From: Octopus vulgaris
Taxonomy: Eukaryota
NCBI GenBank assembly: GCA_951406725.2
Contig: OX597831.1
Span: 79,546,001 to 79,610,000 of the forward strand
Direction of reading: 5' to 3'
DNA length: 64,000 nt
The notes beneath the pieces were generated by a model. The model was not told the DNA's origin. It did no database searches and saw only the letters and a list, made by a program, of their open reading frames with translations. Shown here one piece after another: positions 31,744 through 37,085 of this stretch (position 1 is the stretch's first letter; each line of letters opens with the position of its first letter). The translations under genes were made by a program, and so were the position numbers.

Positions 31744-31881
31744 ACCTCCCTTTGCAAGTACCATAAGAGCACAGAAAATGTGCCTAAAGCCAGCTGGAGA
31801 CGATGTTCTCCTGGGGCTACAAGCTACAGTAACACCCACCCTTAGTGGTTAGCCATATTGAGATGGCAAGTATACCTCACA
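31744..31881 (+). repeat. 138-bp direct repeat, left copy (retrozyme-like unit)
   Basis: Matches 36948-37085 with 5 substitutions. Confidence 0.95.
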
Positions 31882-32261
31882 TTGTCGTGCAGTTACTGTT
31901 TACATCTCGTTCAGAGATTTATTATTGCTTGCAGACAGTTTTTCGAGATCAGTGACGAAAATTTACTGGAAAAACGATAAACGTATTTGCATTGGAACAC
32001 CTTTTCATCAAAAACCGGTGTTTTGACTCGTCTAGGGACCCCTCTTTCATCTGCGTATTGAGAAGTTAGCTGCCTATTTTGTTGAGTGAGTTCGTGTTTT
32101 GTTCGTCGTTGTTTGTGTTTACTCGTGAATTGAACAGTTGTCCGTTGTGTGACAGTAATTTTCGCCATACGAGGCTGAAAATTCTGTGTATAAACATTGT
32201 TATTACCTTCGGGGTAATTTTTTTTTTTTTTTTTGAAAAATTGGTTCTCATAATTTGAGAA

Positions 32262-32921
32262 ATGGAGTTCGACTTGGCGTCGAGCGACTTTCCCGTGATG
32301 GGAAAAGGCGAACAGAAGGATATCGAGGTTAGAAAACAGTCTTTTTCGGCCGCAGTGGGTGGAACCGTAACGGAAGTGGAATTCAAAATAGAACAGTTGT
32401 TCGAATACCGGAACTTGGTCAAAAAGGAAGGCAACGAAATAAAACTGGTACCGCCGCAAGCGATATTACAGGAAATAAAGGCCAAGACAGTCGTGTACAA
32501 GGTATACAGTAACAAAGAGAAAAAAATAATGGACGTGAAGAACGAAATAGTAGAGAAGTGCTTGTCCCCGATGTGGAGCAAAATTCGCTACGTCGGTCGA
32601 GGTGCCCGCAGCGCTACCGTTGAAGCACATTTCGACTCAGCTGATGTGGCAAGAGAGATTTCATCGATGACCTTAAAAAGTGAGGATATCATGTTACTAC
32701 CTACCTATATGGGCAAAAGAACTGCGAAACTATATGTGGAAGACATTCCAAGAGGATATGATATAATGTGGGTAGCAGCGGCGGTTCTGCACGACGTAGA
32801 GCAGAAAGTCTCAATTCTGCAGATGAAAAGGAAAGAGGAGGTAAACTGGAAGGGACAAGCGCTAGATAGAGTGTTCAAGTATTTAAAATTTAAAATTTTC
32901 AAAACTGAAATTATTCAGTAA
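32262..32921 (+). pseudogene. LINE ORF1 N-terminal part (interrupted)
   Basis: 219-aa complex ORF immediately upstream of the endonuclease, with an SFSAAV motif near the N-terminus. No zinc knuckle is visible and it ends in an AT-rich stretch. Confidence 0.65.
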
Positions 32922-33214
32922 GTCTGCAGACACTAAATCAACCACTCGTTTTGCAAAAATAAAGGAAGACGAGTGGAAGGAAAAACACTCCAAGAACATT
33001 TAAAAAATAACCTTATCAGAGACGTAACTAACGAAATACTGGAGGGCTAACTTACTATAACCCCGGCAACCACACCTACCCAGAGCCCGATGGCAACGCC
33101 GGTTAAGAGCCCTGCAGCTACGAGCACAAGGGAGGAAGAAGGGGAAGCATGCAGATTTAAACTGTCATGCTCCCTGTCTCAACCGTAAGTTTTTTTTTCT
33201 CTCTCTCTCCGACA

Positions 33215-36200
33215 ATAGCAAAGCTGGGTTGTGTGAATGTGCGTGGAATGGGGTCGAAATGGAAACAAATTTGTCTCCTGAACGACCTCACGACACACGG
33301 AGTGGACGTAGCTATTGTAACCGAGTCCAAGATGAACGGAGCCCAAGCGTTCTCGCCTCTTCCAAATGGTTTCGAGAAATTTATTTCTCCTAGCCGAGGA
33401 GGAGGAAGGGGCGTGGCAGTCCTTATCAGGAAGAGCTTGGACTTGCAGGTAAGTACTGTCTTTCTGGACCCAGAAGGCAGGCTGGTCGTTCTGGATGTGA
33501 CCCACGTAAGTAAACAGTCCTTCAGGTTGGTAGCTGTCTACGCTCCGAATGAGTGTAGGCAGTCGGGTTTTTTCGGAATCTGGAGCACTTTTTAGTGACG
33601 TCGAAAACGGTAGTCTTAGTAGGGGACTTTAACACTGTCCTCGAAGCGCGGGTCGACAGTGTTGGCTCAACCAATAGGAAGGGGAACCCTAGCCTCATGG
33701 GTCTACTAGAGAGCTTTAATCTAGTAGACCGTTATCGACTGGATGAGCCGAGCGTTCCACAGTGGACGTGGAGTAACAACGACGGATCACGCAGATCGTA
33801 TATAGATAGGATATTCGTTAGGAAAAGAGATAAGGATACGTTTAGTTGTCCACAGTTTCACATTGTGCCTTACACGGATCACAAATTTGTGACTTGTAGG
33901 GTGCAATTAGATAAGTGCCATAGACAGGGACCCGGGTACTGGAAGCTGAACAAGTCTATTTTGAATTGTGAAGACTTCCGTACCCGGATCAAGGTGTTAG
34001 TACAGAAGGCATTATGTGGCACCATCATTAACAATAGATGGTGGCACTCCCTCAAAAGAGCCATTCGTTCAGAGTCCATTAGATTTAGCAATCAGCTATG
34101 GTTAGATAGGTCTAAGATAGAGGACGATTTAGTTAAGAATCTAAACGAGGCAATGGAATCTGGCTCTGCATCCGAAGTGATGGCGGCAAGGACGGTATTG
34201 TACCGTCACCTTAACTCCAAACACGAAGGTTGCAGAGTTAGAGCTAAGCTACGCGCAGGGAAACGAGAAGGTATTAACGTTGCCGGATGGGCCCGTCGGG
34301 TGGAGAGTCAGAGAGGCAACAAAGCTTCAATCAAGTCTTTAACTGACGAACAGGGACACAAGATCTATGGACAGGAGGAGATGCAAAAGTTTCTTCACCA
34401 GCATTTCGCCCGCGCGTTCGGCAGGTGGTGGTTCGCTGGAGCGGGGGAGGGCCTTAAAGGACTTCCTAGCCTGCGGACCGCGGCTCTCGGGGTGTGAGGT
34501 GGAGTGCTGTGAAGGAGCGATCACTCCCGCGGAGATAGAGGGGGTACTGGCCGGATGCGCCGGGGAGAAGTCGCCGGGGTTGGATAGTCTGCTCTACGAG
34601 TTTTATCAAAGTATGCGGGACTTGTTCGGGGGAATACTGGCAGGCGTCTACGCGAACTGGCAGCAGAACGGGAGAATTCCCAGTTCTGTAAGCCGGGGAG
34701 TGGAGACGCTAATCCAGAAAGACCCGAGCAAGGGGGATAACATTAGTAATTACAGGCCCATAACTCTACTTAATGTAGAGTTAAAGATTTTGGCCAAGGT
34801 GTTGGCAAAAAGGTTGACGACTGTCGTGGAGAAACTTGTAGGGAAAGCACAGACATGTGCAATTCCAGGCAGGTCGATCCAGAACAATCTTCAACTTATA
34901 CGCTACACCTTAGATAGGGTGGGTAAATTAAACGGCAAGGGCGGGGTAATGGTTCATTTAGACCAAAGTAAAGCGTTCGATAGGGTAGACCATAAGTACC
35001 TGGCGACGGTCCTCGAAGCGGCTGGACTGGGCCCTGAATTTCGCGGGTGGATCTCCGCTATGTATAGCGGCATCAAGTCCACCGTCCAGATAAACGGTTA
35101 CCTAACGGAACCGTTTTAGATCGAATGTTCAGTTCGTCAAGGGTGCCCCTTGTCACCACTTTTGTACGTGTTGGCTCTCGAGTCATAGCTGCGAAAGTTG
35201 GAGAGGCTGGAAAGTAACCCGGATGAGATCGGAGGCGGGAGAACGGTTTCTGCTTATGCAGATGACGTCACCCTCATCGTGTCCAATGAGGCTCAGCTAC
35301 CTTGTGTAGAAGATGCTATCAGAGAATACGAGGCGGTGGCAGGAGCAAAAGTTAACAATGACAAGTCTATTGGCTTACGCCTCGGCACCTGGAGGAGCAA
35401 GTCGATATCGTCCAGTGCCGTGGGACACTGGACAGATGGTCCTGTTAAGTTGCTAGGAGTTTGGTTTGGGCCAGACTCCCAAACGGAGAGGAATTGGAGT
35501 GAGGTGACGGGCAAGGTGGAGGCCATAGTACGGACCTGGTCCGGAAGGTTTCTGTCCTTGAAAGGAAGGGCGGAGGTGGTACAGATGTTTATTGCATCTG
35601 TAATCACTTACCCCCTGACCGTTGTCCCTTGCCCCGATTCATGGCTTAGCAAGTTGGAGCGAATCCTTTTCCGCTTTTTGTGGAAGGGAAGGAAAGCCAC
35701 TTGTGAGGCGCTCCGTTTGCTGCCAGGAACCGTTAAAGGGTGAGTTAGGAATGCCTTGGTTGATGATGCGCAGACATGCGTTGAAACTGAAGCATCTCTG
35801 GCACCACCTGGAGGGTGATAAGGTGTGGAGTCCGCTGGCAGGGGGATTTTTCCCGAGACCGGCCTCCTTCGTGAATTTTAAACCCGGTCTCATCAAAAGA
35901 TGGAAACTGACTTCATGGCAAAAGGAGTGCCGACAGGCACTCACGCTGATCCACAAGGCGGGCAAGGCTGGCTGCGGAAATACCACCTCGGTATTTTATA
36001 GCAGGCTGGTAGAGGCAAAGAACGACAACGTCCTAGGAGGGGCTCTGGGGTACGACGAGGACCAGCTTACCAACCTGTTTAAAAAGACTTTCAGGACGGG
36101 GTATTTGGATAATCTCCAAAGATCCCTGGCCTGGCAGTGTTATAGGAATGCTTTACCTGTTCGCGAGAAGTTATCGCGGCACGGAATTTCAGTGCCACCG

Positions 36201-36605
36201 ACATGTCCAAGATGCGGGTTGGACGATGAAACCGTCCAGCACGCTTTTGTACACTGTCGGCAGTTGTCAGACTTGATATGTTACGCAGAACACGTGTTAT
36301 CGCATCTGGGACGAGTACAGCTGTCGGCTGAGTCTATGATTAAGATGATACCGCCAACTGGACTCTCGAAGGAAGGTGAGGCATGTTTTCACTGCACGGT
36401 TGCAGTAGTAAAAGAATGCATGTGGCGTACAAGAATGGAAGGAGTCGCAATAGGATCCTTTGTTTCAGGCCCCGGCTTGCTCACTTACTTCAGATATCAT
36501 CTGAAGAGCAAAATGGGGCTGGAAAAGAAGACTTTACCACGAGGTGTGTATGAAAAAAGATGGAAGGAAGTGGTGAAAAAGGTGGGTGTCAGAAACCCAG
36601 TTTAA
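33215..36605 (+). pseudogene. LINE ORF2: AP endonuclease, reverse transcriptase and CCHC finger, with frameshifts and stops
   Basis: APE motifs CVNVRG, VTES, AVYAP, VGDFN, SYIDRI and TDH; GPGYWKLNKSIL; KSPGLD; NYRPITLLN; LDQSKAFDRVDH; VRQGCPLSP; AYADDV; LSLKGRA; CPRC..ETVQHAFVHC. The probable start ATG is mutated to ATA at ~33215. Confidence 0.92.
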
Positions 36606-36874
36606 CTATGGATGGAGAAGAGGAAAGGAAAGCTGCGGGCCCTATAGGATGCCGGGGTTTAAAATATATCGGTAAGATTTCAATCTAATGTAATGTTATA
36701 TTAGTCAATGCAAAGGACAATTTAAATACAGTTTTTTGTATAATGAATAATCCATATATTGTGGAAATTTTTAAACGAACCACTTAACTGTTTTTTGTAT
36801 GTATGTCCTGTATTGTTCTTCTATGTACTGATTTTATAATCGCAATAAAGAATTTATCAAAAACCGGTGATTGT

Positions 36875-36919
36875 CGTACGCTGATGACAGGTCAAAACCT
36901 AGAAACTGCAGTCCGTGCG
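36875..36919 (+). ncRNA. Minimal type I hammerhead ribozyme
   Basis: Stem I CGTACG/CGTGCG; core CTGATGA; stem II CAGG-TCAAAA-CCTA; GAAA; palindromic stem III ACTGCAGT; GTC cleavage triplet (cut after 36913). Confidence 0.85.
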
Positions 36920-36947
36920 TATCACTTAGGTTGACGAGGGTAGGGTG

Positions 36948-37085
36948 ACCTCCCTTTGCAAATATCATAAGGGCACAGAAAATGTGCCTAAAGCCAGCTG
37001 GAGACGATGTTCTCCTGGGGCTACAAGCTACAGTAACATCCACCCTTACTGGTTAGCCATATTGAGATGGCAAGTATACCTCACA
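36948..37085 (+). repeat. 138-bp direct repeat, right copy, running into (CA)n
   Basis: Matches 31744-31881. Confidence 0.95.

Follow-up and report, generated by a model that had tools for sequence, protein, structure and literature searches.

Long interspersed nuclear elements (LINEs) of the Tx1 clade are already known to target DNA transposons, long terminal repeat (LTR) elements, satellites, microsatellites and U2 small nuclear RNA (snRNA) genes (passages of PMC4494074 and PMC4640811). Those found in other transposons include Xenopus Tx1 in Tx1D, the crocodilian Tx1-Mar in Mariner-N4_AMi, Tx1-8_Crp in LTR elements and Tx1-9_AMi in Harbinger (passages of PMC4494074), and Keno and Utopia insert within U2, with the downstream flank running from nucleotide (nt) 39, breaking the gene (PMC4640811, in part). 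Metazoan retrozymes and the hammerhead ribozymes (HHRs) of Penelope pseudo-LTRs (pLTRs) are described, in parts of PMC7229834, PMC4209133 and bioRxiv 10.64898/2026.07.22.740005, as non-coding units of 170-400 nt with a type I HHR and a short palindromic helix III. The present work concerns a locus in which elements of both kinds are combined. The window, that is, the whole 64,000-nt stretch of Octopus vulgaris DNA analysed here (contig OX597831.1, positions 79,546,001 to 79,610,000), contains a LINE of a family designated A that is inserted in an HHR-bearing, retrozyme-like repeat.

Family A targets HHR repeats at a fixed site. We consider it probable, at roughly 0.62, that the window holds a broken copy of a LINE family fixed on one position of the HHR repeat, this position being likely an snRNA-type transcription start whose promoter the LINE likely uses. 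The new target class for site-specific LINEs is real and well supported, and the capture of a promoter is a plausible mechanism.

The evidence for the fixed site comes from both ends of the LINE. With a query made of the 3' untranslated region free of repeat sequence, and among the best 40 of 234 candidates, all 39 other family A 3' ends were located at one site, followed by the window repeat family (35), by a distant HHR-like family (2) or by the target 14-mer and then another LINE (2). The 5' query gave 110 candidates, and in the 30 loci fetched 29/29 other 5' ends stopped at the target 14-mer, 27 of them behind the repeat and two behind another LINE. This tabulation of flanks bore out the targeting that a preliminary description of the window had suspected. 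Moreover, the insertions are independent events. In 21 family A copies, compared over 1.2 kb of LINE each, the mean p-distance was 2.7% for the LINE and 19.8% for the flanks, and the two sets of distances were uncorrelated (Mantel r 0.11, p 0.23); low LINE divergence, high flank divergence and the lack of congruence together indicate independence. Four of 49 duplication pairs were left out of a further comparison (two U2 copies, one truncated 3' end and one shifted junction); in the remaining 45 copies the duplication was identical at both ends in 29, with 16 different 3' variants, and each copy's duplication matched its own target variant. The 14-mers used as targets (ATCGAAAACCGGTG, GTCGACAACCATGA, ATCTGCAGCTAGCA and ATCGCTTCTCGGCC, for example) have little in common beyond R-T-C-K. 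Copies truncated at the 5' end, such as those in L054 and L033, also lie at the target site with the left-flank target sequence. In other species, LINE-like and repeat-like sequences occur in contigs of organisms A-D, and no listed contig spans the junction (31-letter criterion).

At the window locus the parts are arranged as follows, all on the forward strand:

31744..32006 (+): left part of the ~355-nt HHR repeat unit, 5'-truncated, including the 138-nt repeat 31744-31881
31948..31953 (+): ATCAGT hexamer at -59 from the duplication, resembling a proximal sequence element (PSE) and putatively part of a promoter, with motif and distance as in U1, U2 and U5 genes
32007..32020 (+): 5' target-site duplication, its first base being the presumed +1 of the host unit
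32021..36855 (+): family A LINE, L1 group, Tx1-like, defective
32259..32864 (+): remnant of open reading frame (ORF) 1, with a ~510-nt deletion near 32864; a CCHC knuckle is present in other copies
33161..36605 (+): ORF2 with apurinic endonuclease (APE), reverse transcriptase (RT) and zf-RVT, split into four frame pieces and bearing two in-frame stops
36844..36849 (+): AATAAA at the LINE 3' end, the junction having no poly(A) tail
36856..36869 (+): 3' target-site duplication
36875..36919 (+): minimal type I hammerhead with a short palindromic helix III and C-A replacing G-C at the base of helix II (features compared with passages of PMC4209133)
36948..37085 (+): second copy of the 138-nt repeat (common 3' end of the unit)

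The 14-mer ATCAAAAACCGGTG forms both duplications and has no further occurrence on either strand of the window. The 138-nt repeats differ at 5/138 positions, the spacers measure 139 and 78 nt, and Pfam recognised pieces of APE endonuclease, RVT_1 and zf-RVT in this order. Stem I of the hammerhead starts at 36875, 5 nt past the duplication, with the core CTGATGA at 36881 and GAAAC-TGCA-GTC at 36902-36913, and the predicted cut falls after 36913 (+58). This layout had been outlined in the preliminary description, down to the distance of the single type I hammerhead from the insertion point, and is confirmed; there is no HHR upstream of the LINE. The copy itself is broken. Compared with most other full-length copies, its ORF1 is shorter by about 510 nt, and its ORF2 departs from the natural intact frame of 1146 amino acids (aa) by three frame changes and two stops. 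Uninterrupted natural ORF2 frames of 1146, 1134 and 1089 aa are found in L227, L159 and L147, respectively.

The target repeat exists in the genome as an empty unit. The first-look search for it in the 2.8-Gb genome returned 2817 candidates, of which 40 were scored. Natural HHR-to-HHR spacings of 354, 355 and 357 nt were found in L029, L025 and L137, meaning that the unit, postulated earlier as a ~355-nt monomer, needed no reconstruction. It is non-coding and contains a type I HHR, and in both size and content it conforms to a non-LTR retrozyme. Two same-strand HHRs occur in L025, L029 and L137, most of the 29 other repeat loci being partial or inverted. Its copies are scattered and often lack the 5' part or stand head-to-head or partly in tandem, a layout reported for Penelope-type elements in passages of PMC4209133; 5'-inverted and partly tandem copies bearing a minimal HHR are as expected of a Penelope-like derivative.

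The assignment of the HHR rests on a covariation test. In single-strand folding, the structure of lowest energy is not the HHR (window, z -1.16). The alignment held 44 sequences (the window and 43 of 50 extracted, seven having been dropped as mis-anchored, indel-bearing or near-identical) in 42 distinct rows. In these rows 93.5% of the cells were paired and 10/18 pairs varied on both sides, a pairing level matched by 0/500 shuffles, with slid controls at 50% or below. The core pair was C-G in 16, U-A in 14 and U-G in 11, so that a C3-G8 to U3-A8 change is seen, in agreement with the U3-A8 covariation published for minimal HHRs (PMC4209133, in part). The same source, as far as its passages go, gives a conserved G-C at the base of helix II; the window subfamily has C-A there, and G10.1-C11.1 is unpaired in 15/42 rows. 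Rfam detected no hammerhead in 36800-37090, and its listed matches over the whole window were simple repeats below the gathering scores. Two further repeat groups were observed beside this one. A Penelope-like family (L247, L252 and L266), in which open frames of 781 aa are numerous, has at its 3' end a minimal hammerhead of the U3-A8 type, preceded by CCAAT, TGACGTC and TATA-like motifs and without BLAST similarity to the target repeat. In L107:6000-6420 (-), L108, L281 and L282, a distant repeat family presents the same layout with the core CCGATGA in place of CTGATGA.

Judged from the sequence upstream of it, the LINE target site likely coincides with the start of transcription from an snRNA-type promoter in the HHR repeat. 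In the genome, ATCAGT is found at -57 to -60 in 20/20 U1, 9/10 U2 and 9/10 U5 loci. A partly overlapping sample of 30 U2 loci has it at -57 to -61 in 26 cases; of the four devoid of it, two are LINE-interrupted, one has a variant and one is retrocopy-like. Upstream of U6 there were no occurrences among 15 matches, many of them pseudogene-like. Of 46 LINE target flanks, two divergent repeat families included, 45 have the same hexamer (once as ATCTGT) 57-60 nt ahead of the duplication. The targets thus share with U1, U2 and U5 genes a conserved element upstream of the presumed +1, which is the sequence mark of an snRNA-type promoter of RNA polymerase II (Pol II); the animal PSE is centred ~50-55 bp upstream of the start (PMC1761439). 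A profile built from 12 snRNA promoters, leaving out the hexamer, gave eight target flanks scores that only 0-1/126 background ATCAGT sites matched or exceeded, the ranks falling to as many as 16/126 when one snRNA class was withheld. Composition shuffles gave p 0.002-0.06. ATCAGT also overlaps an inverted repeat, CAGTGAC...GTTACTG and variants (31949-31970 in the window, and other target flanks), which appears to covary between repeat families, G-U pairs included, and is not evident in snRNA promoters.

A sister family, B, ~83% identical to A in DNA, provides a view of where the LINE RNA may begin. Its 29 other scored 3' ends were distributed among HHR repeats (18), U2 genes (4), tandem arrangements (5) and off-target positions (2), the U2 identity of the hosts being confirmed by Rfam. 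U2 is therefore a minor target (4/29 plus one tandem), and there family B duplicates U2 +1 to +14. In all four full-length B copies in U2 genes, an additional ATCGCTACGTGGTG separates the U2 duplication from the T-run of the element. These copies reside on contigs C3 and C23 behind different U2 promoter types, are 98.8-99.2% identical to each other, and their extra 14-mer is one base off the repeat-type target of nearby B copies. This retrozyme-type 14-mer suggests that the RNA of family B starts at the host +1; in the simplest reading the template began at the +1 of a donor and this leader later moved along to another U2 locus, which would mean that the LINE RNA includes sequence from upstream of the element. 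In a U2 tandem array (G000:C3:20775000-20836000, L141-L146), B is present as three full-length copies, of which two are arranged in tandem, and as a single 5'-truncated piece ahead of a promoterless U2 copy. In L152:1-1692 (-), an off-target 5'-truncated B copy lies between an inverted repeat fragment and a truncated Penelope-like RT-GIY-YIG frame, recognised by eye, into which it runs directly.

Family C (five copies: L148:452-2050, L150, L277, L279 and L285) is ~1.6 kb long, with an ORF1-like frame of up to 444-483 aa from stop to stop, no RT and an AATAAA 3' end. It occupies the A/B target site in mixed arrays with both families and resembles HAL1-type elements. New relative to the preliminary description are the context resembling an snRNA promoter, the insertion of family B at U2 +1 and the ORF1-only family C. 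Family D, a related LINE of the same genome with 50-63% amino-acid identity, was at the site in 0/25 loci. Its 3' ends (L386-L410) share downstream sequence in groups of 9/25 and 4/25, which are either 3' transductions or weak targets.

In the model favoured here, the HHR repeat would be a Penelope-like, non-autonomous retrozyme with an internal PSE that directs its transcription by Pol II. The LINE endonuclease would nick near +1 and +14, choosing a short RTCK-type start only within a PSE-bound promoter context; both start motif and context are invoked because the 14-mers share little and yet 30 U1/U5 loci escaped insertion. Target-primed reverse transcription, an established process for LINEs, would follow nicking. 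The LINE RNA would begin at the host +1 and carry a 14-nt target leader, aiding precise 5' joining, and at its other end would read into the 3' duplication and terminate through its own AATAAA (36844) or the HHR cut at +58. A multicopy, transcribed and harmless target would in this way supply shelter and promoter. In a bolder version, A, B and the ORF1-only C would constitute a small clade tethered by the snRNA promoter complex to retrozyme and U2 starts and taking over the promoter, with a capped 14-nt leader and a ribozyme-cut +58 trailer being inherited and steering the next insertion; this we hold to be doubtful.

Several points weigh against a fixed snRNA-type start as the basis of targeting. 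The family A 3' ends were taken from the best of the candidates, and two of the 29 family B ends are off-target, with one more having an atypical spacer. The window's own shuffle p is a weak 0.047, and the profile scores are not independent because the target flanks are related. The overlap of ATCAGT with a repeat hairpin (by eye) means that RNA structure could conserve the hexamer. None of the 30 U1/U5 loci that share the PSE-like motif contains a LINE, so that the promoter is not enough to account for targeting. The extra 14-mer, being the same in all four copies, probably goes back to one capture event; a comparison of 5' and 3' duplications aimed at donor-derived 5' duplications gave 11 versus 6 mismatch columns, not a significant asymmetry (one-sided p ~0.17 by hand); and both ends of the LINE RNA are predictions from genomic contigs. 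Regarding an autonomous Penelope partner, 30 of 148 GIY-YIG loci yielded no BLAST match to the target repeat.

It is possible, if on the whole unlikely, that the site is chosen by classical Tx1 targeting, in which the endonuclease alone reads the DNA and target-matching RNA ends assist, the promoter being incidental and U2 being taken for its ATCGCT start. Passages of Kojima 2015 (PMC4494074) present the endonuclease as the main determinant of target choice, and the LINE-free U1/U5 loci, with the motif but another +1 sequence, fit such a view, as does the resemblance of the U2 start to ATCGCTACC, a target variant of B copies near the U2 clade. However, a motif hardly longer than R-T-C-K would be very common in a genome of this size, and it is ATCAGT at -57 to -60 that stays the same from one dissimilar target to the next.

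Far less probable is a mechanism centred on the ribozyme, in which flanking HHRs cut the LINE RNA and, in longer arrays, a ~5.7-kb circle serves as transposition intermediate. The HHR does covary, its strict core pattern is intact downstream of 26/35 A and 12/18 B copies, and retrozyme RNAs circularise in animals (PMC7229834, in part). A circle needs two HHRs, however, and a same-strand core within 450 nt upstream is present in just 2/39 A and 4/30 B copies, which, with its absence at the window copy, lends no support to the ribozyme-bounded excision proposed earlier as the main route. Furthermore, the captured leader begins at +1 and not at the HHR cut site, family B also enters U2 genes, which have no HHR, the window subfamily lacks the G10.1-C11.1 pair, and minimal HHRs were without monomer activity and low in dimer activity in vitro according to passages of PMC4209133. 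The composite element that the preliminary description had offered as an alternative, with LINE and repeats moving as one LTR-like or Penelope-mobilised unit, is hardly credible. Its appeal lies in the LTR-like look of the direct 138-nt repeats at the window locus, and it is contradicted by the incongruence of LINE and flanks, with flank divergence seven times that of the LINE, and by duplications that track each target variant; the 5'-truncated copies in L054 and L033 and the abundance of empty units speak against it as well. Chance insertion, for which the abundance of the HHR repeat could be quoted, has a negligible probability and is refuted by the on-site position of every scored family A copy, compared with none for family D.

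As to its placement, family A possesses the features of the L1 group, namely ORF1, an ORF2 with APE endonuclease, RT and C-terminal zinc finger (Pfam), target-site duplications, a fixed 3' end and 5'-truncated copies. The best solved match was human L1 ORF2p (E 1.7e-57; R2, 1e-23), the nearest named homologue was an Argonauta protein at 48% identity, and the closest protein relatives had 40-62% identity. The sequence-specific insertion into a multicopy target is a trait of the Tx1 clade. In RT trees, A and B group with unnamed APE elements inside U2 (~+36, near the Keno site), with support of 0.909 in FastTree and an SH-aLRT of 91.8 (46 of 77 sequences), under a midpoint root and with unlabelled sequences within the group. 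The Tx1/L1 affiliation advanced earlier stands in its L1 part, and "Tx1-like" is the supportable label, since the trees contained no named Tx1 reference. Keno inserts inside U2 at about nt 39, whereas 0/39 A copies were in U2 and B inserts at U2 +1.

Compared with the transposon-targeting Tx1 LINEs, as far as described in passages of PMC4494074, the present families have in common the APE-RT organisation, a precise site in a multicopy non-autonomous element, tandem insertions around the duplication, a duplication of similar length (16 nt in SINEU-3) and a non-autonomous partner using the same target. They differ from them in entering a hammerhead retrozyme-like repeat at a predicted snRNA-type start, and in that the partner is an ORF1-only element instead of a short interspersed nuclear element (SINE). 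Like Keno and Utopia (PMC4640811, in part), family B uses U2 genes, and the A/B RT groups with U2 ~+36 elements; unlike them, it parts the gene from its promoter by duplicating U2 +1 to +14. The repeat resembles the metazoan retrozymes and Penelope pLTR HHRs in its unit and ribozyme, including the U3-A8 covariation and the head-to-head and partial tandem copies, and differs from the retrozymes, as partly described, in that mostly 1-2 units and not long arrays are present at the loci seen here. Searched passages of two retrozyme papers do not mention Tx1.

Literature searches turned up no LINE targeting newt satellite 2. This satellite, which carries an HHR, was reportedly the subject of a promoter study by Coats in 1994. 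A citing sentence in PMC2220036 ascribes to it a Pol II promoter of the snRNA type, which makes it a precedent for the octopus repeat, whose promoter is predicted from sequence. No title or abstract opening listed by the full-text searches dealt with LINEs targeting retrozymes, pLTRs or snRNA starts, Repbase, Dfam, subscription papers and supplements (notably the figure 3 lists of Kojima 2015) being outside that search; the passages of a recent octopus repeat annotation (PMC13282606) did not contain the hammerhead and target terms.

The results have several implications. A ribozyme-bearing retroelement, itself a parasite, hosts a site-specific LINE and represents a safe haven of a new class. 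They also provide sequence evidence outside newts for an snRNA-type promoter in an animal retrozyme, whose predicted start is marked by the LINE insertions. Dictyostelium TRE5 and yeast Ty3 are tethered to Pol III factors. Like these elements and R2, the octopus LINEs would rely on the promoter of a host unit and keep a fixed position relative to it; they differ in enzyme class or polymerase system, and tethering by SNAPc is hypothetical here. R2 is co-transcribed with 28S rRNA (passages of PMC4494074). As regards the change of targets by Tx1-type LINEs, one young subfamily here uses both retrozymes and U2 +1 and keeps the footprint of its donor target, and there are natural copies with uninterrupted ORF2. 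By virtue of this combination, endonuclease reading, promoter tethering and RNA-end guidance become separable by ordinary assays.

A metagenome scan returned only distant relatives (24-37% identity), with the repeat in none of them and one HHR-like pattern, at chance level, in 80 loci. These distant LINEs (L304, L292, L331, L342, L351 and L334) enter U1 (~+36), 5S rRNA, small-subunit rRNA and U2 (~+23), and the U1 and U2 +23 sites may be undescribed.

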